This document shows positions 29,057-64,000 of a stretch of DNA of 64,000 bases, in pieces (the stretch's first letter is position 1; each line of letters begins with the position of its first letter). This DNA is from an uncultured Bacteroidota bacterium (GTDB taxonomy: Bacteria; Bacteroidota; Bacteroidia; Flavobacteriales; Flavobacteriaceae), in assembly GCA_902626365.1 (NCBI GenBank), contig CACOFE010000004.1, positions 14,267 through 78,266 on the forward strand, read 5' to 3'. The translations under genes and the position numbers were made by a program. The notes beneath the pieces were generated by a model. The model had not been told where the DNA came from. It saw nothing but the letters and a program-made list of their open reading frames with translations, and ran no database searches.

Positions 29057-29812
29057 ATGAAAAAAATTATTCTTTTGCTTTCCGTTTTCTTTTTAAGCTC
29101 ATGTTCTTTGTTTTATAATGCATCAAAAAAAAATAATGAAAGCACCAGAAAGTTTACACCAAAAAAATCTATACGTAATGCCAATAATAATCTTAATAGT
29201 ATAGAGTATATTCAAGCAAAAGCTAAGGTTTCATTTAGAGATAATAATAAAATAAAATCAAACACTATAACCATGCGGATTTCAGCTAATGAAAAGATAT
29301 GGATTAATGCATCGCTTGGAGCCGCTAGGATACTAATTGATAATGATTCGATAAAGTATTATAATAAAATTGAAAAGAATTACTTTACATCTGATATTAA
29401 TTATATAAACGATAAAATTGGCTTTGATTCAAATTTCGAAATATTTCAAAACCTAATATTAGGTATTTTAATTCATAAATTTGACCCCTCCTCTTTATAT
29501 AAAAAAACAGCAAATAGCTATATTTTTAGAGACGATAAATTCACTATCAATTCTAAAGTAGTTCAGTCTACTGTTTCCATCAGCCCCTCCAACTTCAGAG
29601 TTCTCAAACACTCTTTTAAAGATCAAAATAATTTTTTTGAAGTATCATATGACGACTATACTATAATCGATGATCAAATTTTACCCACAAAAATCCGTTT
29701 TTCTAATAATGGATTAGAAAACCTATATATTGAGATTAAGTCTATTTCTTCTCTAGAAAAAATTAATATTCCCTTTAGGATACCTAAAAATTATAAGCGC
29801 ATTAAATTATAA
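29057..29812 (+). CDS. lipoprotein of unknown function (DUF4292/LolB-like from memory, unverified)
   Basis: Lipobox FFLSSC|S. 251 aa. Confidence 0.6.
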   Translation: MKKIILLLSVFFLSSCSLFYNASKKNNESTRKFTPKKSIRNANNNLNSIEYIQAKAKVSFRDNNKIKSNTITMRISANEKIWINASLGAARILIDNDSIKYYNKIEKNYFTSDINYINDKIGFDSNFEIFQNLILGILIHKFDPSSLYKKTANSYIFRDDKFTINSKVVQSTVSISPSNFRVLKHSFKDQNNFFEVSYDDYTIIDDQILPTKIRFSNNGLENLYIEIKSISSLEKINIPFRIPKNYKRIKL

Positions 29813-54168: not shown

Positions 54169-55287
54169 TTATAAATCAACAATCGATTTATAGCTGGTTT
54201 TATCTGTATCACCTTCAGTATTAAATATTAAAATTCTAGATTTAGAATTTAAACCAATGTGTTCATTTAATTTTGATAATGCAGGATCTTTAATGCATTT
54301 CATAAGACCAGCAAGACCTGCTGCTCCTGATTCTCCTGAAATAATTCTTGCATCATTCTCATTTGGTTTATATAATGTTCTCATTGCATCTTTAACATCA
54401 TCATCGGAAATTGTAAGAACTGCATCACAACCTTTTTTGATGATTTCCCAAGCACTTTTTGAAGGAATTCCACAATTTAAACCTGCCATAATTGTTTTAA
54501 AACTACCTTTTGGTGAAACTCTTTCATTTTGCTTAAACGAGCTTAGTATTCCAGCAGCTTCTTGTGGCTCTATTAAAACTATTTTTGGTTTATTTTTTTC
54601 GTATCTATTTAAATAATACCATATACAAGATGCTGGCCATGAACCTACTCCACATTGAAGAAATATAACATCCACTTTAGGCTTATCAAATAAATTAATT
54701 GAGTCTTCCATTTCTTTGAAATGAGTTAAATAGCCTGACATTATTAAGGCTGGAATTTTTTCATATCCATCCCATGAAGTGTCCTGAACAAGCATCCAAT
54801 TGTTTAAATTACTTTGTTCTGCAGCGTAATTACATGTTTGCTCATAATTCATATTAAGCTGTATAACCTCTCCTCCAAATTGTGCAATTGCATCAATTCT
54901 TTCAGCAGTTGTATCTTTTGGAACATAAACTACAGACTTTTTTTTATTTATTGAGGCAGACCAGGCTACTGCTTTTCCATGATTACCGTCAGTTGCCGTG
55001 CAAAACACTGATATTTCAGGGTAATCCATTAATAATTTTTTTATCGCATAAGAAGCTCCAAGTCCTTTGAAAGCATTTAAATTGAATCTTGTTGACTCAT
55101 CCTTTAAATGTATACTTCGACAACCAAGACTGGCTGATAAACTTTTTAGTTCAAATAAGTGACTAACAGAGTAGTTAGGTAATGTTTTATGAAATTCTAA
55201 AGAATCACTCTCTGATAATATTTGTTCTGTTAAATTATTATCTCTTTTATTATTCGGAATATTTAAAAAAAACTCCATTATAGTCAA
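54169..55287 (-). CDS. fold-type II PLP enzyme, diaminopropionate ammonia-lyase-like
   Basis: PLP-lysine region NAFKGLGASYA and a Gly-rich loop. About 370 aa with the N-terminal extension typical of DAP ammonia-lyases. The subfamily call is from memory. Confidence 0.65.
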   Translation of the reverse strand: MTIMEFFLNIPNNKRDNNLTEQILSESDSLEFHKTLPNYSVSHLFELKSLSASLGCRSIHLKDESTRFNLNAFKGLGASYAIKKLLMDYPEISVFCTATDGNHGKAVAWSASINKKKSVVYVPKDTTAERIDAIAQFGGEVIQLNMNYEQTCNYAAEQSNLNNWMLVQDTSWDGYEKIPALIMSGYLTHFKEMEDSINLFDKPKVDVIFLQCGVGSWPASCIWYYLNRYEKNKPKIVLIEPQEAAGILSSFKQNERVSPKGSFKTIMAGLNCGIPSKSAWEIIKKGCDAVLTISDDDVKDAMRTLYKPNENDARIISGESGAAGLAGLMKCIKDPALSKLNEHIGLNSKSRILIFNTEGDTDKTSYKSIVDL

Positions 55288-55359: not shown

Positions 55360-55433
55360 TCCTCCTTAGCTCAGTTGGTTAGAGCATCTGACTGTTAATC
55401 AGAGGGTCCTTGGTTCGAGCCCAAGAGGGGGAG
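55360..55433 (+). tRNA. tRNA-Asn (anticodon GTT)
   Basis: Cloverleaf folded by hand. Acceptor TCCTCCT/AGGGGGA, D stem GCTC/GAGC, anticodon stem TCTGA/TCAGA with loop CTGTTAA, T stem CTTGG/CCAAG with loop TTCGAGC, discriminator G. CCA is not fully encoded. Confidence 0.95.
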
Positions 55434-55465
55434 CAAGCGAAACCGCTACACTACACAGAATAAAG

Positions 55466-55493
55466 CCTTCGAGAAATCGGAGGTTTCTTTTTT
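55466..55493 (+). terminator. rho-independent terminator of tRNA-Asn
   Basis: CCTTCGA-GAAA-TCGGAGG forms a 7-bp stem (one G-U pair) with a GAAA tetraloop, followed by TTTCTTTTTT. Confidence 0.7.
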
Positions 55494-55510
55494 AATAGTT
55501 ACAAGTTAAA
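55491..55510 (-). repeat. degenerate, shortened copy of junction element R3 abutting the tRNA terminator
   Basis: tttaatagttacaagttaaa compared with gtttaatgtatctacaagttagttaaa at 58468. It is followed at 55524-55560 by the same GGCARYTATAT / AAAAAGTGGMAACT motifs that follow the 58468 copy. Confidence 0.5.
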
Positions 55511-55523
55511 GGTACAATTTTTT

Positions 55524-55545
55524 GGCAGTTATATGGCAGTCCTTA
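55524..55545. repeat. 11-bp phased direct repeat (GGCAGTTATAT GGCAGTCCTTA)
   Basis: Related to GGAAACTATAT GGCAACTATAT GGCGC at 58499-58525. Both lie just outside an R3 copy. Confidence 0.5.
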
Positions 55546-55616
55546 TAAAAAGTGGCAACTCATTTGGGTCTCCAAAACAATAATAAAAATTTATTAATTA
55601 ATTTTAGTATGTGAAA

Positions 55617-55799
55617 CTATTTATTCTTCCGCTCATTCTTCCGCTCAATATTAAAAAAATACACTTGACCTAAATGTCCTATAGCTGCAATACCATGACC
55701 ATATTTATAATCAATAAAAATTACTGAAAGCCATCCTCCCATAGCTAGTAAAGAAAAAATAAACAGTAAAGTTTTTTGAGCAGGAGTTAAACTTTTCAT
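55617..55799 (-). CDS. small 2-TM membrane protein with a basic tail, unknown function
   Basis: 60 aa. An R3 element lies directly upstream. The C-terminal ERKNERKNK is encoded by a 12-nt tandem duplication. Confidence 0.55.
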   Translation of the reverse strand: MKSLTPAQKTLLFIFSLLAMGGWLSVIFIDYKYGHGIAAIGHLGQVYFFNIERKNERKNK

Positions 55800-55810
55800 T
55801 ATAATCCGTT

Positions 55811-55841
55811 GTTTAATATATCTACAAGTTAATTAAAAAGT
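55811..55841 (-). repeat. junction element R3, copy 1 (31 nt)
   Basis: gtttaatatatctacaagttaattaaaaagt, 29/31 identical to 58468-58498. It ends 11 nt upstream of the ATG at 55799. The next 15 nt (tgtttacggtttatt) resemble the inner part of R2. Confidence 0.8.
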
Positions 55842-55870
55842 TGTTTACGGTTTATTGTATATTGGTTTTT

Positions 55871-56797
55871 TTATCCTCCAAGATTGAAATCATCTGATGG
55901 GATACCTTTAAAATATCGAGGAATCCCTGGAAAATCATCAGTTATTATGTAGTAATATATTCCATCTGGATATTCAGGAGTTTTCCCTTCTCGACCATTG
56001 GCCTCGTCAAGTGAACCCAATTCACTTATGTATTCGTAGTCATTTACATAAACTCCGTTATATTCATCGCAGGGAGCAGATATTCCATCTCCTGGTCTAA
56101 AACCTGTTTTTAACCTATAACTCGTTGTCATTTCTATTATAGAAGATGTTTCATCAAAAGGGTCAGAAAAGGCATATTTGTAGTAAATTGGAAAACCATC
56201 AGCTGCATATCCAATTAAATTCATTGTATTTGAAGACAGGCTATCTAAGTAACTAATTGGTGCTCCGTGATAATGATATTGACCAGATGGTTGAACGTGA
56301 CCATTATTACAATCTAATCCTAATGGTGTATTTGTTGCTTCTAAATTCCAATCCCAATTTGCATTTGGACTATCAAGTCCCTCGTGTGGAAAAGGTTCAG
56401 CAGCTACTGGGTCCAACTCTATACCGTTTAACATTATACCAAATGAATAATTTGGCCCATTTGAACCTTGTAAAGGAATTAAACTTTGAGCAATGACAGG
56501 ACTAATAGGTAAATTATAAACGAGGTTCTGCTCAGAAATTGAATGCGGATTTAATGCTCCCTGAACATTACCAAATAGACCAACCATATGATTAGGAATA
56601 CTATTTGAGGATATTATTCTTGAATTTTCTGTAATATTATGGCTGTATGATGTTTCAATTGATAAAGACACATTACAATCCCCTCTGGACTGACTGAAAA
56701 TTTGGTCAGAGATGCAGGGATTAACAATCGTTTGGCCTTCATCATCGCTACAACCAAAGACAAGTGGAATAAATACTAATAGTATTAGCTTTTTCAT
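55871..56797 (-). CDS. YHYH-domain lipoprotein
   Basis: Lipobox LVFGC|SDD and the eponymous GQYHYHG motif. Carries the shared MKKLILL head. Confidence 0.8.
   Translation of the reverse strand: MKKLILLVFIPLVFGCSDDEGQTIVNPCISDQIFSQSRGDCNVSLSIETSYSHNITENSRIISSNSIPNHMVGLFGNVQGALNPHSISEQNLVYNLPISPVIAQSLIPLQGSNGPNYSFGIMLNGIELDPVAAEPFPHEGLDSPNANWDWNLEATNTPLGLDCNNGHVQPSGQYHYHGAPISYLDSLSSNTMNLIGYAADGFPIYYKYAFSDPFDETSSIIEMTTSYRLKTGFRPGDGISAPCDEYNGVYVNDYEYISELGSLDEANGREGKTPEYPDGIYYYIITDDFPGIPRYFKGIPSDDFNLGG
56778..56797 (-). repeat. signal-peptide head repeat, copy 1 (intact, YHYH gene)
   Basis: The plus strand reads aatagtattagctttttcat, i.e. ATGAAAAAGCTAATACTATT on the minus strand. Similarity to the 63369-63405 copy extends to 37 nt (35/37). 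Confidence 0.9.
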
Positions 56798-56817
56798 ATC
56801 GCGTGTTGCTCTATAGA

Positions 56818-57303
56818 TTAATAGTCATATTCTACTGCTTGACCTTGAACCCCAATTGACCAGTGAATTTGAACAACCTTCCATTCTCCATTAATTTTTT
56901 TTATCACCCCACTGTTTCTAACATTATTAATCTCTCCCGAATCTTCACCAACTGTGAAAGTGAAATCTAAAAGCTGTGTGTAGGACGCCATATTTCCACC
57001 ATCACTCATTATAATATTTAAATCTCTGGTTTCAAACTTAGGGTTTTTGATTGCCAGTTGTCCAACTATTGAAGGTTCAATTTCACTCCAACCACTCAAG
57101 TATTCTGCTTCGTCTGTTCCGATTAAAACTGCATCATCAGAAAACGTATTTTTCGCCTGTTCTAGACTGCTATTTGTAAAAAAATCAAATTGACTTGAAA
57201 TGAAACTACTTGCTTCATCCAATGTTTTTTCTGGATTAGGGTTTTGCACATTACAACTGTATAATAATGAGGTAATTAATGTAAAATATATTATTCTTTT
57301 CAT
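56818..57303 (-). CDS. NTF2/SnoaL-like (DUF4440-type) lipoprotein
   Basis: Lipobox LLYSC|N. About 140 aa mature protein with the cone-shaped alpha+beta pattern ending in W..VQIHWS. Fold call from sequence pattern only. Confidence 0.55.
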   Translation of the reverse strand: MKRIIYFTLITSLLYSCNVQNPNPEKTLDEASSFISSQFDFFTNSSLEQAKNTFSDDAVLIGTDEAEYLSGWSEIEPSIVGQLAIKNPKFETRDLNIIMSDGGNMASYTQLLDFTFTVGEDSGEINNVRNSGVIKKINGEWKVVQIHWSIGVQGQAVEYDY

Positions 57304-57345
57304 ATTGTTAATTTTAAATATTTATAATTTTTATTTCTTTTAAAG

Positions 57346-57398
57346 ATAGTAAGTTGTTTAGGGTTTGTCAAGTAAGAAACGAGGATATTGATATGTCG
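57346..57398. repeat. junction element R2, copy A (53 nt)
   Basis: atagtaagttgtttagggtttgtcaagtaagaaacgaggatattgatatgtcg, 51/53 identical to 61902-61954. It lies in a divergent spacer between a minus-strand lipoprotein gene and a plus-strand membrane-protein gene. Confidence 0.9.
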
Positions 57399-57460
57399 TA
57401 TGTTGAACTATAAATTATTATGGTACATATTACGTAATACACCTTAAACAAAGTATACGT

Positions 57461-57697
57461 ATGTATTTCTGGTATATAATTTGTATTCGCAATATCACAA
57501 AAACATCATTGATGTACAGTTTATTAAATATTGGCAGATTATATTTAGTTTTGGGTTTTATTTCCATACTGGTTTATGTAAATATTCCAGAAGAAATGAA
57601 TAATTCCACAATGGCAGTATGGATTCTTGGACTTAGTGCAATTTATTTTGTTTTAGGCATAAGAAGACTTATAAGGCACTATAAGGAAAATAAATAA
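57461..57697 (+). CDS. small 2-TM membrane protein (likely start at the internal Met, 57512)
   Basis: The hydrophobic hairpin begins at MYSLLNIGRLYLVLGF. Basic C-tail RHYKENK. Confidence 0.5.
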   Translation: MYFWYIICIRNITKTSLMYSLLNIGRLYLVLGFISILVYVNIPEEMNNSTMAVWILGLSAIYFVLGIRRLIRHYKENK

Positions 57698-57726
57698 CTT
57701 ATATATATCATTTTCATTCTTCAAAA

Positions 57727-57780
57727 TTATCTCAGACAAATACCATTAGAATAAATAATAATAGTATTAGCTTTTTTCAT
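57727..57780 (-). pseudogene. frameshifted/truncated remnant of the lipoprotein head
   Basis: ATGAAAAAAGCTAATACTATTATTATTTATTC has one extra A compared with the intact heads. The corrected frame reads MKKLILLLFILMVFV then stops. No gene body follows. Confidence 0.7.
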
Positions 57781-58112
57781 ATCGATTGTTGTAAAATTAT
57801 TATTCCTAGAATAAGGTAGGCCAGAGCAGGTAGAATTTCAGAAATATTATCTTTTATTTTAATTCTAACACAAACAGCTACAACCATCATAATTATTAAA
57901 ATTACTGAGCTGATAATTAGTATTAAATTTAATTTTAAACCAATCAGTATTCCTATACCGCAGGCTAGTTGAACACTGCCAATCTGCTTTCTTCTTTTTC
58001 CCAACCCCCATCTTTCAAATTCCAAAATCATTTTATTTGAAATAAAAGAATTTATACCATAAGCAATAAAGGATATGGCTGTGAAAACTGTAATTATATT
58101 ATATACGTCCAT
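57777..58112 (-). CDS. DoxX-like small polytopic membrane protein (second of a pair)
   Basis: About 111 aa from MDVYNIITVF, with 4 TM segments. Its ATG overlaps the upstream stop (TAATG). Its own TGA overlaps the ATG of the head remnant (ATGA). The listed ORF extends to 58127. Confidence 0.6.
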   Translation of the reverse strand: MDVYNIITVFTAISFIAYGINSFISNKMILEFERWGLGKRRKQIGSVQLACGIGILIGLKLNLILIISSVILIIMMVVAVCVRIKIKDNISEILPALAYLILGIIILQQSI

Positions 58113-58456
58113 TAAATTAAGCCACAATTAAACGAAGCAATAAATAAAGACATAATCAAAAATATTAGCGATGGAACAAACTTAATAAAAGGATTTTTAA
58201 CTTTTATATGAGAAAGTTGCGCACACAACATGAAGAAAGCCATTGATAGGGACGCATAAATTGTAATTTCATTATACCATAACCCAAGTATTAATAATGT
58301 TGAAGTTGATGTTTTGGCAACCCCTACAAAATTTCTTAATAAGTCTGAATATCCATAATGTTTAAATTCCACTACAATATTGTCATATCTGAAAATCCAA
58401 ACAATAAGAACAGAGATTGCGACAATCAGTTGAAATGCTGTTGAAATATTTTCCAT
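58112..58456 (-). CDS. DoxX-like small polytopic membrane protein (first of a pair)
   Basis: 114 aa with 4 TM segments. An R3 element lies directly upstream. Confidence 0.6.
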   Translation of the reverse strand: MENISTAFQLIVAISVLIVWIFRYDNIVVEFKHYGYSDLLRNFVGVAKTSTSTLLILGLWYNEITIYASLSMAFFMLCAQLSHIKVKNPFIKFVPSLIFLIMSLFIASFNCGLI

Positions 58457-58467
58457 AATTCTAATTT

Positions 58468-58498
58468 GTTTAATGTATCTACAAGTTAGTTAAAAAGT
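58468..58498 (-). repeat. junction element R3, copy 2 (31 nt)
   Basis: gtttaatgtatctacaagttagttaaaaagt ends 11 nt upstream of the ATG at 58456. Confidence 0.8.
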
Positions 58499-58525
58499 GG
58501 AAACTATATGGCAACTATATGGCGC
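58499..58525. repeat. 11-bp phased direct repeats (GGAAACTATAT GGCAACTATAT GGCGC)
   Basis: Tandem units with an 11-bp period, adjacent to R3 copy 2. Confidence 0.6.
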
Positions 58526-58549
58526 TCTTTAGCTTTTTTATATCGTTTC

Positions 58550-59830
58550 TTACTCTTTTATTATTTTATGTGTTGAGGTGTTTATACCGTCTGTAAGATT
58601 GAGAATATATCCCCCTTTCTCTAAACTGGAGATATCAATTTTTGTTGTGAAATATCCTTTCATTACTAGTCTTCCAAATATATCAAAAACTTCTGCTTCT
58701 AATCTTAAATTACTATTTGTGTAAATATAATTTGAAGTGGGGTTTGGGTGTAATTTAATCTCAAAATTTTGCAGCCCATCACTTGACATTGGATTGCATT
58801 CAATTTCATTACTTGAATTTTCATATAATTGACCATTTAAGACATACCATTCTTGCCATTCACCTCCAGTTCCTGTGTTCCAGGAATTAAGATCAAAAGA
58901 GTTCTCACCATTCACAGTACCTTTAATATTATAAACTTTTATTGCTTGATAGTCTGCATTCCACTCTAATGGCACATTCGGCGAGGAAATTTCAGGATAA
59001 TTATTCGAAATCTCACAATTTACCTGTAAAAAATATGCGTTATCATCATAATTTGGAAACTCTCCGAAAACCCTAGCGTTTCCGTTTTGGTCAATACAAA
59101 CAGCCGTATACTCATCACAAGCTACACCAAATACAGGAGTTCCATAGTCTGTCAGTATTCGTGACATAAAAACAATGTGACGTCCCTTTCTTTCAGGATC
59201 GTCATAGTGTTGATCAGTAATTACATTAGATAAATAATCAACCTCTAAAAAAGGTAAATTATCAACGGTAACTGAGACATTATAAGGGTTAGACAATGCT
59301 TCACTTGATGTAACTGTCCCATTTTGGGCAGTAAAGTAATATTCACCCATTATTGCCATACCTGCGCTAGTACCACCCACTGCAATATTTCTTTCAGAAA
59401 TAGCTTGATTAATTAATGTATTGAGTTGAGTGCCTCTAAAATAATTAACATAATTCCATTGATTTCCCCCTGCAAACCATATAGCCTCAGCATTCAAAAC
59501 TTTATTGTGAATATATGACTCATCTGCAGCAGAACTATTATTAAGCACTATGGTTTCAACAGAATTAACATTTACACCCAATTCGCTAAATAAATAATTA
59601 TTATAACCATCGCTTCCAGATGTTCTCAAAACTAATATATCACCACCATTAGAGCGCTCCAAAAACCAAGTCATTGCATTATCGTCCTCTGAAGCACCTC
59701 CCATAAGACAAACACCTCCATTGGTTTCTCGATAAACATCATTATTATTACCAGTGAAATATGAAGTGTAGTTTTGGCTAATAGAATCAATGGATATAAT
59801 TAATAAGATTAATAGTATTAGCTTTTTCAT
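58550..59830 (-). CDS. peptidase S51 / cyanophycinase-like hydrolase with a T9SS C-terminal sorting domain
   Basis: Shared head signal peptide. Nucleophile elbow VGGTSAGMAIMG. The last 70 aa or so (LHPNPTSNYIY...FDIFGRLV...GGYILNL) look like a Por/T9SS CTD. Confidence 0.75.
   Translation of the reverse strand: MKKLILLILLIISIDSISQNYTSYFTGNNNDVYRETNGGVCLMGGASEDDNAMTWFLERSNGGDILVLRTSGSDGYNNYLFSELGVNVNSVETIVLNNSSAADESYIHNKVLNAEAIWFAGGNQWNYVNYFRGTQLNTLINQAISERNIAVGGTSAGMAIMGEYYFTAQNGTVTSSEALSNPYNVSVTVDNLPFLEVDYLSNVITDQHYDDPERKGRHIVFMSRILTDYGTPVFGVACDEYTAVCIDQNGNARVFGEFPNYDDNAYFLQVNCEISNNYPEISSPNVPLEWNADYQAIKVYNIKGTVNGENSFDLNSWNTGTGGEWQEWYVLNGQLYENSSNEIECNPMSSDGLQNFEIKLHPNPTSNYIYTNSNLRLEAEVFDIFGRLVMKGYFTTKIDISSLEKGGYILNLTDGINTSTHKIIKE
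59811..59830 (-). repeat. signal-peptide head repeat, copy 3 (intact, S51 gene)
   Basis: Exact 20-mer aatagtattagctttttcat. Confidence 0.9.
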
Positions 59831-59843
59831 AAATTAAGATGGT

Positions 59844-60398
59844 TTATTTGACGGCTTTAATATATTCTATTTCTAAATTAAATCTACCTTCCTGTTTGTC
59901 AGAAATATGAAGGCTTAACGAATTTACTTTCTCAAGATCCAAGTCTGGATAGTTTGAATATGTATATCCCCTCCAAGTTGCTCTAAAATCTTCAACTGGA
60001 AGTTTTACAATTATCCATTCATTTTTTTGAGACTTAAAATCACAGGAATAGGAAGCTCGAATATTTTTTTGCCTTAATCTAAGTTTATAATTATTCCCAT
60101 CCCCCTTTAATTTAATCTCAAAAAACTTTATACCATTGAGATTATGTTTTCCAATATCTAGCCTTGACGAAGCAAATCCCCCGTTATTTTCAAGAGATAA
60201 ATTACCTCTAAAAATTAAATGTTTTTTGTCATTAATTAGAACAGTAGAGTTGGAAATACCCCCCATAACATCATCGTTTACGATGGTCCATTTTTTTATT
60301 CCGATTTCTTTAGATGGATTAATCAAATCAAGACTCTGGGAGTTCATAGGGGCTTCAAAAATTAAAGATACAAATAGTAATAGTATTAGCTTTTTCAT
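59844..60398 (-). CDS. CIA30 (complex I intermediate-associated protein 30-like) domain secreted protein
   Basis: Shared head. W.IVNDDVMGGISNS...GGFAS pattern typical of CIA30 domains. Confidence 0.75.
   Translation of the reverse strand: MKKLILLLFVSLIFEAPMNSQSLDLINPSKEIGIKKWTIVNDDVMGGISNSTVLINDKKHLIFRGNLSLENNGGFASSRLDIGKHNLNGIKFFEIKLKGDGNNYKLRLRQKNIRASYSCDFKSQKNEWIIVKLPVEDFRATWRGYTYSNYPDLDLEKVNSLSLHISDKQEGRFNLEIEYIKAVK
60379..60398 (-). repeat. signal-peptide head repeat, copy 4 (intact, CIA30 gene)
   Basis: Exact 20-mer. The upstream leader TAGAGCAACATACGAT (60399-60414) matches TAGAGCAACACGCGAT at 56798-56813. Confidence 0.9.
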
Positions 60399-60411
60399 AT
60401 CGTATGTTGCT

Positions 60412-60657
60412 CTAATATAATAGACTTTTTAAATAGTCAACAATCATATCATAATAACCATTAACATTAAAATAAAAAAGTATAAAAACCCCAATAATAA
60501 TCCCCATGACAGCACCAATTCTTTCTCCTCTCTTAATGTTAATTTCTTTACTTTCAAGCATCATATATTTTGGAATGAATGGACGTATTATTAATACTAA
60601 TAATGCAAAAATGCCTATTACACAGCAAATTATAAATATGTAATCAATGATTTCCAC
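60412..60657 (-). CDS. small 2-TM membrane protein, unknown function
   Basis: 81 aa with two hydrophobic helices. Confidence 0.5.
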   Translation of the reverse strand: MEIIDYIFIICCVIGIFALLVLIIRPFIPKYMMLESKEINIKRGERIGAVMGIIIGVFILFYFNVNGYYDMIVDYLKSLLY

Positions 60658-60688
60658 CTATCAATAAAATTAATATAAATTAATCAGA

Positions 60689-60721
60689 TTAATTAAATAA
60701 TAATAGTATTAGCTTTTTCAT
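60689..60721 (-). pseudogene. decapitated lipoprotein head (MKKLILLLFN then stop)
   Basis: The exact 20-mer head (60702-60721) is followed by a stop after 10 codons, with no gene body. Confidence 0.7.
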
Positions 60722-60846
60722 TTTTTCAAATATTTATATATTAAAAATGCTAAACAAAGCCCAAGCCCAAGCACAATAACAACAAATGAATTATCACTGA
60801 GTAGAGAATCTTTAAGTGTATCCGTATGTAAAAGAGTTTTGTTCAA
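60718..60846 (-). CDS. possible 42-aa single-TM ORF (TTG start) ending LIYKYLKK
   Basis: Below the ORF-track cut-off. Its TGA overlaps the ATG of the head remnant (ATGA). The tail resembles three other small ORFs in the island. Confidence 0.3.
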   Translation of the reverse strand: MNKTLLHTDTLKDSLLSDNSFVVIVLGLGLCLAFLIYKYLKK

Positions 60847-60850
60847 GATA

Positions 60851-60955
60851 TTATTTAACAGCTTTAATATATTTTATTACTCAGCCAAACAACTTTCCAA
60901 ACAAGCATAAAAAATATCTGACTACTGATCTGATTTGTGTAACTATTTTTTTCAT
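60851..60955 (-). pseudogene. fragmentary cassette: head-like start (MKKIVTQ..., 24 codons) plus a CIA30-like 3' tail remnant
   Basis: The leader CCAACATACGATATG is conserved. After an in-frame TGA the frame reads VIKYIKAVK-stop, compared with EIEYIKAVK-stop at the end of the CIA30 gene. The 13-mer GCTTTAATATATT is shared at 59856 and 60861. Confidence 0.45.
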
Positions 60956-60987
60956 ATCGTATGTTGGTTTACTCTAATGTTATAACA

Positions 60988-61191
60988 TTATTTCTTTTTT
61001 AGATTTTTCACTCCTAAATATGTCATATAAAAAAACAAGATAGCTAATGGCGTCTCAGTATATTCATTAAGAAATTCCGTTTCTTTAATTACATTACAAT
61101 AAATGTCATATCCAATCAACCCAACAGATCCAAAATATAAAACTGCGGGGAGATATTTAACCGAGTATATTAGTTTTTCGATTTTATCCAT
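60988..61191 (-). CDS. small 2-TM membrane protein with a basic tail (NLKKK)
   Basis: 67 aa. It starts 4 nt after the stop of the head remnant. Confidence 0.5.
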   Translation of the reverse strand: MDKIEKLIYSVKYLPAVLYFGSVGLIGYDIYCNVIKETEFLNEYTETPLAILFFYMTYLGVKNLKKK

Positions 61192-61195
61192 ATTA

Positions 61196-61216
61196 TCAAA
61201 GTATTAGCTTTTTCAT
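61196..61216 (-). pseudogene. decapitated lipoprotein head (MKKLIL then stop)
   Basis: gtattagctttttcat (16 nt of the head), then a stop at codon 7. Confidence 0.65.
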
Positions 61217-61419
61217 TTTTTTCTTTTGAAAAAATCATATTTTATTAAAACCAATATTATAATAAAGAAAAGCAATGAAAAAAAACATAAACCAATAAAA
61301 TTAAAAATGGTTTCTCCCATGTCTTGAGTGCTAAAACTAGCTGAAGTTAAAATAACTAATGCCATCCATAATGAAGCAATTGAAAGTATAAATAAAAACC
61401 AAGAAAAATACTTATTCAT
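61213..61419 (-). CDS. small 2-TM membrane protein ending LIKYDFFKRKK
   Basis: 68 aa. Its TGA overlaps the ATG of the head remnant (ATGA). Confidence 0.55.
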   Translation of the reverse strand: MNKYFSWFLFILSIASLWMALVILTSASFSTQDMGETIFNFIGLCFFSLLFFIIILVLIKYDFFKRKK

Positions 61420-61449
61420 AACTATAAACGTTTAATTAACTAAAAATTA

Positions 61450-61875
61450 TTAATCAAATATTACTAATTTCAATTTTAAACCCTTATAAGTTTCTGCAAT
61501 TCCTTCAACAGAAGTTTCACTTTGCAAAGAAATTCTAACAAAACCTTCCCCATAACTTAAATAAGAAAATGTTGTATCTCCAATTTCTTTCCATACAGGA
61601 TTGTATTGAGGAAACTGACTCCATCTTTGAGGTCTTTCTTCGGTTGCTGCTCTTTCAATATATGCAAGCACAGCGCCCCCTTCCATTACATCATCATCAA
61701 TTTCGGGAACTTTAATTTCAAAGTTTCCATATTGTTTGTCATCACTAAGGCTTGTTAAATCTCCAAACTCAACAATTACAACTTCAAGTTTTTTTCCAAC
61801 TTCAAATTCTTTTTCAATCTCAATACAAGAAAAAAAGAATAAAGGGATAAATAATAATAAAAATAAATTTTTCAT
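61450..61875 (-). CDS. lipoprotein of unknown function
   Basis: MKNLFLLLFIPLFFFSC| signal, similar at the protein level to the shared head but diverged in DNA. R3 (partial) and R2 lie directly upstream. Confidence 0.65.
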   Translation of the reverse strand: MKNLFLLLFIPLFFFSCIEIEKEFEVGKKLEVVIVEFGDLTSLSDDKQYGNFEIKVPEIDDDVMEGGAVLAYIERAATEERPQRWSQFPQYNPVWKEIGDTTFSYLSYGEGFVRISLQSETSVEGIAETYKGLKLKLVIFD

Positions 61876-61883
61876 AATGTTTA

Positions 61884-61900
61884 GTTTAATGTATCTACAA
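61884..61900 (-). repeat. junction element R3, copy 3 (17-nt core gtttaatgtatctacaa)
   Basis: Identical to the first 17 nt of copy 2 and contiguous with R2 copy B. Confidence 0.75.
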
Positions 61901-61901
61901 T

Positions 61902-61954
61902 ATAGTAAGTTGTTTATGGTTAGTCAAGTAAGAAACGAGGATATTGATATGTCG
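61902..61954. repeat. junction element R2, copy B (53 nt)
   Basis: 51/53 identical to 57346-57398. Again in a divergent spacer between a minus-strand lipoprotein gene and a plus-strand membrane-protein gene. Confidence 0.9.
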
Positions 61955-62002
61955 GCATTAATTAAAATTCACTATTTTAACGAACAACTATTGCATTGAT
62001 AT

Positions 62003-62452
62003 TTGAAAATGTTAAAAATACCCCCACCTCTATTAGTTCTGGTTTTAGTTATTTCTAATTACTTTTCATCTAAAAAAATTGATTTAATTCTCCTGCCAAA
62101 TCAAAACTTAATTTCATTTATTATACTTTTAGTCGGAGTGCTTATTTTAATTAATCCAATTCTTAAGTTTATAAAATCAAAAACTACAATTGACCCGATA
62201 AAGTTTAAAAAAGTTAACAAACTCATAACCTCAGGAATCTATAAATATTCAAGAAACCCTATGTATTTAGGTCTGTTGATGATAGTCATATCAACATCAA
62301 TATTCTATTTGAATATTTTCTCACTTATAACACCTATCCTTTTTGTTTGTTGGATAAATAGATTTCAAATTAAAAGAGAAGAGATTTTTCTCGCCGAAAA
62401 ATTTGGTAAAGAATACATGTTATATAAGACTAAAACAAGAAGATGGATTTAG
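62003..62452 (+). CDS. isoprenylcysteine carboxyl / phospholipid methyltransferase family membrane protein
   Basis: GIYKYSRNPMYLG motif and 4 TM segments. TTG start at 62003 or ATG at 62009. Confidence 0.75.
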   Translation: MKMLKIPPPLLVLVLVISNYFSSKKIDLILLPNQNLISFIILLVGVLILINPILKFIKSKTTIDPIKFKKVNKLITSGIYKYSRNPMYLGLLMIVISTSIFYLNIFSLITPILFVCWINRFQIKREEIFLAEKFGKEYMLYKTKTRRWI

Positions 62453-62585
62453 TGAGACTAATTTTTTTACTTTCATATATATTTTTCCTCTTTTAGCCAA
62501 GAAAATACTCCAGAACTGTCTGTAGTATGTTGCCCTAAACGTTAAAAATTAACTATATTGTTAAACTAATTTTTAAACTTTTATT

Positions 62586-63092
62586 ATGAAAAATATTACA
62601 TACTTATTTACTTTATGTCTGATCTTAACTTCTTGTGGTCAAGAATGTGAGGTTGAGTCCAATGGATTTGCCCCTATGGAGGGTCAAACAGTTATGATGG
62701 GAAGTCAAGCATCAGTTGATGTTGTTATTGCAATGGATAAGGTTTGGGCAGAAAGAGATTATGATGCTTTAAAATCTTTTATTGCAGATGGGGCTAGTCT
62801 ACAATTTTATAATGGTACAACTGCAAGTAATGGAGATGAGTTTGTTGCGATTATTGAGAAACAATATCAGGATGGACTTGCAGAAGGAAATTCTGGGGAA
62901 TGGGTATTTAGATACGCATTTTCTATTAAGCCCTCCAAACCTGAGGGAACAGATCATCCTAACAACAGAGGAGAATGGGTTAATGCTGGGTTTGCAGGAT
63001 CTGATGGAAGTAACTATAATGAATGGTATCAGGTTGAGAATGGAAAAATTATTTCTTGGTCACAAACCAGAGGCGTAACTTCTGCTGAATAA
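62586..63092 (+). CDS. NTF2/SnoaL-like lipoprotein
   Basis: Lipobox LILTSC|G. About 150 aa mature alpha+beta protein ending NEWYQVENGKIISW. A degenerate R2/R3-type leader lies upstream in the same relative orientation (62520-62565). Confidence 0.55.
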   Translation: MKNITYLFTLCLILTSCGQECEVESNGFAPMEGQTVMMGSQASVDVVIAMDKVWAERDYDALKSFIADGASLQFYNGTTASNGDEFVAIIEKQYQDGLAEGNSGEWVFRYAFSIKPSKPEGTDHPNNRGEWVNAGFAGSDGSNYNEWYQVENGKIISWSQTRGVTSAE

Positions 63093-63100
63093 ATTTTTTA

Positions 63101-63147
63101 TTAACTCTATACTAATAAAAATATTTATGATATTAGTATAGAGTTAA
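63101..63147. terminator. perfect 17-bp inverted repeat between convergent genes (bidirectional terminator candidate)
   Basis: TTAACTCTATACTAATA, a 13-nt loop, then TATTAGTATAGAGTTAA. T-rich on both sides. Confidence 0.55.
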
Positions 63148-63177
63148 TATTTTAATTTAAGTATTTAAAGAATTGGT

Positions 63178-63405
63178 TTAGTTGCAGGGTCCATCTTCAT
63201 ATGCAATAACCCCATAAAAATTAAAAGCCTCACAGCTATTTCCATAGGTGTTTCCGTCACATCCGCATACAGGCTGATATTCTTCAGTGCAAGCATAATC
63301 TAAATTGATTAATGACTCATCAACACACATATTTGGCACATCCTCATTATCACTACTACAATTAAATACAAGTGGAATAAATAGTAATAGTATTAACTTT
63401 TTCAT
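63178..63405 (-). CDS. Kazal-type protease-inhibitor-domain lipoprotein
   Basis: Shared head and lipobox LVFNC|SSD. Kazal signature C..EYQPVCGCDGNTYGNSCEA....C. Confidence 0.75.
   Translation of the reverse strand: MKKLILLLFIPLVFNCSSDNEDVPNMCVDESLINLDYACTEEYQPVCGCDGNTYGNSCEAFNFYGVIAYEDGPCN
63386..63405 (-). repeat. signal-peptide head repeat, copy 7 (intact, Kazal gene; 1 mismatch)
   Basis: aatagtattaactttttcat. The 37-nt stretch 63369-63405 matches 56761-56797 at 35/37. Confidence 0.85.
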
Positions 63406-63491
63406 TTTTTAAATTGAATATAGATTAAACATAAAGTTACTATTATCGAGCAAACAATTATAACTTTATTATACCACTTTAACTTTTTCAT
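63402..63491 (-). CDS. possible 29-aa single-TM ORF ending LIYIQFKK
   Basis: ATGAAAAAGTTAAAG start (head-like). ATGA overlaps at both ends. Below the ORF-track cut-off. Confidence 0.35.
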   Translation of the reverse strand: MKKLKWYNKVIIVCSIIVTLCLIYIQFKK

Positions 63492-63664
63492 TTCTTTTTC
63501 TCTTTTTTGAATTTATAAAGTAAATAGATAAGAAATATAATAAATACTACAAGTAGAGTAATTTCTAAATTTTTTTCTGCAAATTTTCTTGCTGCACCAA
63601 TTATAGGTAAATCATCAATAAATTTAAGCAGATATTTAAGAAGTTTTAATAAGAACTTCCCCAT
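63488..63664 (-). CDS. 58-aa membrane-anchored ORF ending LIYLLYKFKKEKKK
   Basis: Translated by hand. Its TGA overlaps the next ATG, and it starts 1 nt after the upstream stop. Confidence 0.45.
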   Translation of the reverse strand: MGKFLLKLLKYLLKFIDDLPIIGAARKFAEKNLEITLLVVFIIFLIYLLYKFKKEKKK

Positions 63665-63665
63665 A

Positions 63666-64000
63666 TTATTTAAATTTTCCTTTTACTTCTGTGAAAAATA
63701 AAAATGCTATAATTACACCATCTAAAAGGATCAATGCATTCTCACTAAATTCTAAAAAAGGGGTAAAAGGCGTTACACTCGTGAGAATATATGAATCATC
63801 TGAAATCACGAAATAACTAATAGCGCCCATTATAAGATAAAATATAAATAACTTTTTACCAATAGGTTTTAGTTTATATAAGAAATACCACATAAAAGGA
63901 ATCAAAATTAAAAGTATAATAAAGAAAATTCCTTCTATTATAGTTGGCTCAGAGTCAACCTCTTCATAAGGAAAATAAGTTTGTTCAACTATGAATAATA
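63666..64000 (-). CDS. membrane protein, 5' end probably beyond the window
   Basis: The frame stays open from 63905 to base 64000 (…EEVDSEPTIIEGIFFIILLILIPFMWYF…). The listed TTG at 63905 may not be the real start. Confidence 0.45.
   Translation of the reverse strand, partial: LFIVEQTYFPYEEVDSEPTIIEGIFFIILLILIPFMWYFLYKLKPIGKKLFIFYLIMGAISYFVISDDSYILTSVTPFTPFLEFSENALILLDGVIIAFLFFTEVKGKFK

Follow-up and report, generated by a model that had tools for sequence, protein, structure and literature searches.

What joins an array of small, unrelated genes that begin with the same short DNA sequences, and how do such genes come and go? The question is raised by positions 55435-64000 of a 64 kb stretch of DNA (the window, whose coordinates are used throughout) from an uncultured marine bacterium of the Flavobacteriaceae with ~30% guanine-plus-cytosine (GC) content. 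The original prediction for this region described an abrupt change of gene type after a tRNA-Asn gene, with at least 16 short open reading frames (ORFs), 13 of them on the minus strand, and likened the array to cassette-accreting systems such as integrons and recombinase-associated arrays. The change is borne out, with 18 short ORFs beyond the tRNA, 15 on the minus and three on the plus strand, and the architecture is both real and unusual. We consider it probable, if well short of certain, that the region makes up the greater part of a flexible genomic island next to tRNA-Asn, whose exported-protein genes are shuffled by general recombination at portable promoter/leader/signal-peptide modules. 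The island is at least 10 kb long and, on the features tested, is a member neither of the integrons nor of the recombinase-associated interbacterial defence (rAID) clusters. Of the cassette analogy there remain the unrelated, co-oriented, gene-sized modules beside a tRNA, joined by shared sequences; membership of either known class is not supported, and no recombinase gene was found in the 55 kb on one side of the array or in the 4.7 kb past position 64000. Contigs and loci fetched for comparison are designated L001-L135.

The case for this interpretation begins with three nucleotide repeats named in the original prediction, head, R2 and R3, and copies of all three are far above chance. The 20-mer head occurs seven times at no more than three mismatches, always between 56.7 and 63.4 kb, against an expectation of 0.03 over all 64 kb; three copies each of R2 and of the R3 core compare with 0.00 and 0.01 expected. 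Window positions 1-55000 contained none of the three, and neither did the core flanks of L011, L012, L013 and L019 (~94 kb in total). The head had been taken for a junction between genes, a view that has to be given up: it is coding and forms the start of a signal peptide (first ~45 nt), reading ATG AAA AAG CTA ATA CTA TTA... on the coding strand and encoding MKKLILL(L/V)FIPLVF. R2 is a spacer of 13-15 nt from the preceding stop codon to the ATG of the head, with the consensus TAA-ACCAACATACGAT-ATG, and R3, which contains TTGACn-N17-TATnTT, stands upstream of the gene that opens each run; in L076 R2 comes directly after the R3 core, and the head directly after R2. The succession R3-R2-head reads as promoter, leader and signal peptide, R3 being a putative promoter from its sequence. 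A sigma-70 promoter scan recovered both long R3 copies, with no overall excess of sites (55 versus 52.9 expected). Rfam found no RNA family other than tRNA in the junctions. Some signal peptides end in a lipobox followed by acidic residues (CSSDD), which we take to resemble the Bacteroidota lipoprotein export signal for surface exposure, and the island lipoproteins may accordingly be displayed on the cell surface. Others end in ...SFG|Q, in agreement with the Q-rule for signal-peptidase-I substrates of Bacteroidetes (PMC5837995). The rare codons CTA ATA CTA TTA of the head form a palindrome, TAATA-C-TATTA (window 56778-56790, and in every head copy), extended to CTAATA-C-TATTAG in the head of the YHYH gene, which could be a protein-binding site or a coincidence.

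The head is also widespread. A metagenome scan with the head 21-mer retrieved at least 120 contigs, and pooling these with the window and the earlier loci gave at least 179 heads and at least 24 head-only stubs. The mature parts of the head-bearing proteins of at least 60 amino acids (aa; at least 134 proteins) form at least 65 clusters without mutual similarity (E < 1e-5), one of which, with 22 members, is the Kazal-type lipoprotein. Pfam matches in a sample of these proteins comprised MORN with an aspartyl protease, FG-GAP, leucine-rich repeats with a type IX secretion (T9SS) tail, DUF285, beta-lactamase with peptidyl-prolyl isomerase (PPIase), DUF2911 and YHYH. The identity reaches into codon choice. 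The rare codons of the head (AAG 0.23, CTA 0.135, used twice, and ATA 0.33) would occur together in ~5e-4 of genes under independent choice; the sole other lipoprotein gene of the window (at 29057) has a differently coded N-terminus; conservation around the head runs from -15 to +47, third codon positions included; and, of 84 head-type genes, 69 encode FIPL as TTT ATT CCA CTT, but only 8 of 24 do so when the same peptide follows other N-termini. On these patterns the head is common to unrelated genes by descent at the DNA level. Among 61 pairs of adjacent heads, 60 are co-oriented, and the median distance is 856 nt. Toward the 3' side, identity between heads ends at no fixed boundary but anywhere from 21 to 51 nt.

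Heads also adjoin tRNA-Ala, tRNA-His and a Thr-Tyr-Gly-Thr tRNA cluster, beside which a different island, in L076, holds a head-bearing YHYH gene. Since heads sit by other tRNAs and in other islands, the repeats are not private to the tRNA-Asn locus; the original prediction had counted genome-wide occurrence of the repeats upstream of ordinary lipoprotein genes as a point against its cassette reading, and the presence of head and R2 at many other loci goes part of the way toward this. An enrichment of tRNAs near heads (14 tRNAs in ~423 kb) was considered and is too weak to claim. Phage carriage was examined in 2.9 million viral contigs, none of which matched the 30-nt head or R2+ATG exactly. 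Orthologues may differ in having the head, as seen for a gamma-glutamyltransferase-like gene (L050 versus L100), for the 42-aa membrane-protein ORF tm42 and for CIA30. In the first case the two orthologues, both by tRNA-Ala (L050:3336-5021 and L100:2027-3712), begin with the signal peptides MKKLILLLLCLIS... and MKNIIFFTLILL..., a difference that suggests signal-peptide swapping on a housekeeping gene. Literature searches on the head peptide, on conserved signal peptides of hypervariable islands and on marine flavobacterial islands, made in an incomplete library, brought up no earlier account of such an architecture.

Comparison with relatives shows that content and order of the island vary and that the breaks fall at head, R2 or R3, as the original prediction had supposed they might. 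The flank of tRNA-Asn, PALP-family gene, steroid-dehydrogenase-like gene and RseP gene is shared by the window, L012 and L013, and that of tRNA-Asn, steroid dehydrogenase and RseP by L019; the same tRNA-Asn borders the island in L012, L013, L019 and L124, and in all four the site holds other genes or another order. Read from the far end toward the tRNA, the window has Kazal, ..., CIA30, S51, DoxX pair, SnoaL, YHYH, and L013 has SnoaL, Kazal, ..., DoxX pair, CIA30, DUF285, DUF2911, while genes of the same pool are permuted in L120, L053, L126, L106, L044, L048, L117 and L067. Ends of homology blocks cluster at the repeats: the DoxX-pair block covers 57772-58498 (88% identical to L013), blocks to six loci end within 57749-57777, at the frameshifted head stub, the CIA30 block to L013 covers 59810-60409, and the SnoaL blocks to L120 and L013 end at 56811 and 56814, within R2. 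Direct repeats stand on both sides of four segments that are present in one contig and absent from another. L098 lacks a 731-nt cassette that lies between two heads in L013 and carries a hybrid head, its 5' part from the head of the 245-aa gene of L013 and its 3' part from that of the next gene, with the crossover within CTATTTAT; a 1.2-kb insert that distinguishes L047 from L109 is bounded by AACCAACATAyGATATGAAAAAG; a 1.6-kb cassette differing between L023 and L044 has R3 at its bounds; and a DUF285 gene differing between L013 and L067 is bounded by R2-like copies. In L118 a full Kazal gene replaces the head stub, the 81-aa membrane-protein ORF tm81 and CIA30 of the window, with breaks at nt 27 of a head and at the ATG of the next head (the S51 ATG). 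The window (58535-60724) has the order stub-tm81-CIA30-S51, of which L056:1-845 shows a circular permutation: there an intact head stub and tm81 come after the S51 gene. Tandem duplication or a circular intermediate would produce such an arrangement.

Crossovers map to differing places, namely head +25 to +33, R2 -17 to +9 and the R3 core, and this variety, together with the graded extent of head identity, argues for homologous rather than site-specific recombination, presumably of RecA type. The island would have been assembled from gene-sized exported-protein modules, comprising lipoproteins, signal-peptidase-I and T9SS cargo and small membrane proteins, and the repeats at its junctions would be signals for expression and export that belong to the 5' ends of the modules themselves. 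Across the lineage, at least 65 unrelated families have this 5' unit in common at the nucleotide level. Because its copies are co-oriented direct repeats (~25-60 nt), general recombination could delete, insert, replace and permute the modules; a circle released by recombination of two heads could integrate at any further head with its orientation kept, and no dedicated integrase would be needed.

Several points weigh against this interpretation. Modules without a head (the 78-aa membrane-protein ORF tm78 and the PEMT gene) are shuffled too, with homology stopping at ORF ends, so the repeats are not the sole route of shuffling, and illegitimate events are needed to account for head stubs fused to unrelated sequence. 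Local gene conversion was considered as the source of head uniformity and set aside, as identity between heads is equal within contigs (0.789) and between contigs (0.795). Synonymous sites of the head are conserved between lineages with core-gene differences of 22-32%, a sign that the sequence itself is under selection, and for this shuffling by general recombination does not account. The variable region probably goes on beyond the stretch seen, a CNNM-CBS gene being flanked by pool genes in some contigs. The recombinase search described below covered the window and the fetched contigs, and such a gene may lie elsewhere in the genome. Finally, the comparison sequences are mostly short-read metagenome contigs, in which an assembler that jumps between repeats would mimic repeat-mediated deletion.

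Some of these points would be expected if the repeats were expression and export signals only, kept constant by strong selection on translation initiation and on Sec/Lol targeting, in an island that varies by illegitimate recombination or transfer at a permissive tRNA-proximal site, so that the breakpoints are simply gene boundaries. The repeats are placed exactly as promoter, leader and signal peptide and have less structure on both strands than shuffled sequence, as a translation start region would; the movement of head-less modules and the lack of within-contig homogenisation suit this explanation, and the peptide motif LLFIPL..SFGQ is also found with other codons. It has difficulty with the four indels, whose flanking direct repeats overlap by 22-49 nt, and with the demonstrable hybrid head of one of them. 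Nor can selection at the protein level fix rare synonymous codons across 65 families, and the 60:1 co-orientation of heads exceeds ordinary gene co-orientation. We regard this explanation as rather unlikely.

The possibility that much of the apparent shuffling is an assembly artefact, with short-read assemblers joining different genomic places through 40-60-nt repeats, perhaps in the window too, draws on the closeness of the repeat length to a typical k-mer and on the shortness of contigs with island genes (13 of 20 blocks below 2 kb). In addition, the single-cell-genome contig L011 (CABYIO010000028.1), which has 98% identity to the window, stops precisely where the PALP-family gene begins, at the island edge, which fits an assembly break at a repeat-rich region. 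Against an artefact, differing orders come from independent sources, including the window, the metagenome-assembled genome NAT90 (L013), a single-cell genome (L012) and many TARA and JGI samples; variant alleles differ by 5-20% in their flanks and therefore derive from different populations; several rearrangement joints lie away from any repeat; and over 62.1-64.0 kb the arrangement of the window is borne out by ten independent contigs. An artefact on this scale is very unlikely.

A further alternative is a site-specific cassette system, integron- or rAID-like, in which a dedicated recombinase encoded outside the sequence examined acts on the R2/head junction. It would accommodate the unrelated and co-oriented cargo with its shared junctions, the 60:1 co-orientation of heads, the conservation of synonymous sites (as for a DNA recognition site), the short palindrome of rare codons, the circular permutation in L056, and a recurrent joint after ...CGAT of R2, which is followed by ATG-head, by R3 or by the distal part of R3. 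The original prediction had expected an array-proximal recombinase past position 64000, and this was not encountered: TARA contigs that continue the window for 4.7 kb (L001, L002 and L053) encode 135-aa and 147-aa membrane proteins, a 161-aa lipoprotein, a CNNM-CBS protein, a 60-aa ORF and a PNGase-F-like protein, and Pfam and phmmer detected no recombinase either there or in the 55 kb upstream of the island. When Xer and resolvase queries (the resolvase sequence an approximate one) were compared by phmmer with 760 ORFs of at least 100 aa from the window and all loci, a search of finite sensitivity, the only match across the window and ~423 kb of head-bearing contigs was the gene of the Xer query itself, in L076, and no recurrent cytoplasmic family accompanies the head arrays. 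In that contig (L076:114-4968) rpsU, a XerC/D-like tyrosine recombinase gene (376-1263) and the Thr-Tyr-Gly-Thr tRNA cluster (1375-1752) are followed by a co-directional array of R3 core, R2 and head with YHYH; this is the only recombinase gene seen, and the layout is formally rAID-like. The array lies downstream of, and co-directional with, the recombinase gene, as a site-specific system would have it, but the rpsU-xer-tRNA arrangement is, we presume, a housekeeping locus in Bacteroidota.

Structured sites were likewise not found. The R2+head consensus, two window copies of it and two R3 copies, folded on both strands, gave z values of -0.08 to +1.21 relative to shuffled sequences and no hairpin, in line with the earlier remark that the repeats do not resemble attC sites, and with neither hairpin nor recombinase in the sequence examined the integron/attC reading was rejected. 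An island inserted by a tRNA-targeting integrase was rejected for want of a partial-tRNA repeat, the 24-nt 3' end of the tRNA-Asn gene occurring only once in the window at up to three mismatches. There is no GC shift of the island relative to the rest of the window (0.26-0.36 against 0.23-0.38 per kb) and no immunity (Imm-type) family among the Pfam matches of its genes. With crossovers at varied positions and the extent of homology graded, we judge a site-specific system to be distinctly improbable, and prefer shuffling by general recombination between the modules.

The features of the island, with the basis of each call in brackets, are as follows.

55360-55434, plus strand: tRNA-Asn(gtt), the conserved island edge (ARAGORN; Rfam tRNA, 66.9 bits)
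55463-55486, plus strand: terminator-like hairpin of the tRNA (homology to relatives stops at 55493)
55491-55560, no strand: degenerate iteron/promoter-module remnant against the tRNA terminator (repeat family D14)
55617-55799, minus strand: tm60, a 60-aa membrane-protein ORF (preceded by an R3 copy, 55793-55853)
55871-56797, minus strand: YHYH lipoprotein gene (Pfam YHYH, 5.8e-57; head 56741-56797, MKKLILLVFIPLVFGCSDD)
56798-56820, minus strand: R2 leader from the SnoaL stop codon to the YHYH ATG (repeat search)
56818-57303, minus strand: SnoaL_3/NTF2-like lipoprotein gene (Pfam, 3.4e-14)
57310-57416, minus strand: R3 promoter-like module (TTGACA-N17-TATCTT) with distal 32-mer and R2-like end (repeats, promoter scan)
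57461-57697, plus strand: tm78, a 78-aa membrane-protein ORF (81-88% identity in five loci)
57755-57784, minus strand: frameshifted head stub overlapping the stop codon of DoxX116 (repeat search)
57777-58456, minus strand: DoxX_2 gene pair (116 aa, 114 aa), one mobile module (Pfam; in at least seven loci)
58450-58549, minus strand: R3 core, 11-bp iterons (58498-58524) and degenerate R2/head stub after the S51 stop codon (repeats)
58550-59830, minus strand: Peptidase_S51 gene with T9SS C-terminal domain (Pfam; head 59811-59830)
59844-60398, minus strand: CIA30 gene (Pfam, 9.3e-41; head 60342-60398; R2 60399-60421)
60412-60657, minus strand: tm81, an 81-aa membrane-protein ORF (91-94% identity in L026, L049, L056)
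60692-60721, minus strand: head-only stub MKKLILLLFN* (the L118 allele has a full Kazal gene in its place)
60718-60846, minus strand: tm42, a 42-aa membrane-protein ORF (orthologues elsewhere begin with the head, MKKLILLHTD...)
60851-60978, minus strand: remnant made up of R2, a short ORF and the terminal ~30 nt of a CIA30 gene (repeat families D3, D13)
60988-61191, minus strand: tm67, a 67-aa ORF (78-81% identity in L053, L071, L117)
61197-61216, minus strand: head-only stub MKKLIL* (head search)
61213-61419, minus strand: tm68, a 68-aa membrane-protein ORF (ORF call, comparison with loci)
61450-61875, minus strand: 141-aa lipoprotein gene with a second head type, MKNLFLLLFIPL, in different codons (ORF call)
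61866-61954, minus strand: R3 module (TTGACT-N17-TATATT) with distal 32-mer (repeats, promoter scan)
62003-62452, plus strand: PEMT/ICMT-type membrane methyltransferase gene (Pfam, 6.2e-13; neighbours vary across nine loci)
62586-63092, plus strand: 168-aa lipoprotein gene (no Pfam match)
63178-63405, minus strand: Kazal-type lipoprotein gene (Pfam Kazal_1, 3.1e-6; head 63349-63405)
63488-63664, minus strand: tm58, a 58-aa membrane-protein ORF (ORF call)
63666-64000, minus strand: membrane-protein gene running off the window (135 aa in L001; start ~73 nt past 64000)

The products of the island genes are lipoproteins, T9SS cargo and small membrane proteins, and Pfam agrees with the domains named in the original prediction: YHYH, SnoaL_3 (NTF2-like), two DoxX_2, Peptidase_S51 with Por_Secre_tail (the T9SS C-terminal domain), CIA30, PEMT/ICMT and Kazal. 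The proteins had been described as mutually unrelated, which holds overall, with the exceptions of the DoxX pair (26% identity), of the SnoaL protein (SnoaL161) and the lipoprotein just beyond the window end (25% identity, a weak NTF2-like match), and of N-terminal-only matches restricted to residues 1-35, that is, to the head itself. Most of the remaining small membrane-protein ORFs recur in other contigs, and their differences show a moderate excess at third codon positions; on that pattern they are probably real but fast-evolving genes; tm60 has no homologue in the fetched loci. The predicted truncated remnants were confirmed as three head-only stubs and a CIA30 3' end (60851-60881), within a region (60851-60978) that is 98.6% identical in L118. 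SnoaL orthologues in L013 and L120 occupy other island positions, and the distal 32-mer of R3 at 57310-57416 is identical to the copy at 61923-61954. A copy of this 32-mer stands in L001:5612-5679 between the PEMT and 168-aa lipoprotein genes, where the window (62459-62526) is unrelated. Between the convergent 168-aa lipoprotein and Kazal genes lies a perfect 19-nt inverted repeat with a 13-nt loop (63099-63149), probably a bidirectional terminator.

At the tRNA edge, blastn blocks to L013, L019 and L124 all stop at 55493, and the degenerate R3/iteron block that had been noted against the terminator is real (55523-55560) and better preserved beside the tRNA in L012 and L013. The 11-bp iterons (TGGCAACTATA repeated) are found at window 58498-58524 and 55523-55560, at L013:9709-9758 and at L012:1900-1941, a related block being kept directly after the tRNA-Asn terminator in three genomes. 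The PALP-family gene of the window (54169-55278) shares 98% identity with its counterpart in the single-cell genome AG-333-D18 ("uncultured Bacteroidetes") and 78-82% with those of two further marine Flavobacteriaceae assemblies; in the more distant relative L019 (5035-5990) it is missing between tRNA-Asn and the steroid-dehydrogenase-like gene. Exact-protein look-ups of PALP, with two alternative starts, and of YHYH matched no record. Elsewhere, a head-bearing array includes a 792-aa protein with DndB and Card1-endonuclease-like domains, of defence type (L135:3697-6075), and a contig-end ORF beside another array (L032:7736-8185) has a sub-threshold match to DNA_pol_B_2 (viral/organellar PolB) and may be the edge of a mobile element.

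Flexible, or hypervariable, genomic islands of marine bacteria, a concept of the Rodriguez-Valera school, are often tRNA-adjacent and rich in cell-envelope genes. The island shares with them a fixed position between core genes (here tRNA-Asn, PALP and RseP on one side), content and order that differ between close relatives, envelope or exported products, and poor metagenomic assembly; it differs in that its modules have nucleotide-identical 5' expression/export modules marking the recombination joints, and in having small lipoproteins and secreted proteins as its cargo in place of glycosyltransferases. Marine picocyanobacteria have tycheposons and other integrative islands that target tRNA genes, and these too carry tRNA-adjacent variable cargo in abundant, streamlined ocean bacteria; unlike them, the window island has neither a tyrosine recombinase nor partial-tRNA direct repeats. 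In the vsp/vlp/vsa variable lipoproteins of Mycoplasma and in Borrelia lipoprotein paralogues with their conserved leaders, the DNA of the 5' untranslated region and signal peptide is near-identical and the mature parts differ, these being related paralogues or repeat variants that serve antigenic or phase variation, often with a dedicated recombinase. Conservation of the same 5' DNA among clustered genes, and recombination within it, are common to those families and to the island, whereas here the mature parts have unrelated folds (YHYH, CIA30, S51, Kazal, beta-lactamase/PPIase, DUF285 and others) and the host is a free-living ocean bacterium.

With integron arrays the island has in common co-oriented, unrelated, gene-sized units with a ~60-nt shared element, remnants and permutations. 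Integron cassettes are mostly promoterless; in the island 15 of 18 genes are on the minus strand and heads are co-oriented 60:1, with promoter-like R3 modules interspersed. The sequence examined has no IntI gene, attI or attC hairpin, and the shared element is 5' and partly coding, with crossovers that do not fall at one fixed point. The rAID-1 arrays of gut Bacteroidales are defined by a 5' XerD-like recombinase at least 44% identical to BF9343_RS08045, a GC content shifted relative to the recombinase and the genome, homologues of interbacterial immunity proteins, and at least two co-directional genes separated by repetitive sequence (Ross et al., bioRxiv 10.1101/471110). Of these, the island has only the last, being a Bacteroidota array of co-directional small genes with repetitive junctions; in the sequence examined it lacks the 5' recombinase, the GC shift and the immunity families, and its products are exported, unlike the cytoplasmic or periplasmic immunity proteins of rAID.

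A more speculative extension, which we put forward tentatively and hold to be unlikely, is that R3-R2-head is a portable express-and-export module that doubles as the recombination site of a cassette system without an integrase of known type. An ORF landing behind a head would become a secreted or surface protein, and could subsequently be cut out, passed from cell to cell and put back at any other head; the synonymous sites of the head, with their rare codons and short palindrome, would be kept by selection for a role at the DNA level or for an unseen recombinase or regulator. Shuffling by general recombination, if borne out, would be a warning that an integron-like architecture can arise without integron machinery.

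Streamlined, abundant ocean bacteria are thought to vary their cell surface through flexible genomic islands, and little is understood of how genes enter and leave these islands. In the present case the joints are legible in the sequence itself: one promoter/leader/signal-peptide module, identical at the DNA level on at least 65 unrelated families, marks the points of cutting and joining. If our preferred interpretation, shuffling by general recombination at these modules, is correct, a sequence tag of 21-30 nt would retrieve such arrays from any metagenome, and the question would arise why synonymous sites in a signal peptide stay conserved across lineages. It would also mean that this lineage has a simple, integrase-free way to build and reshuffle its exported proteome.

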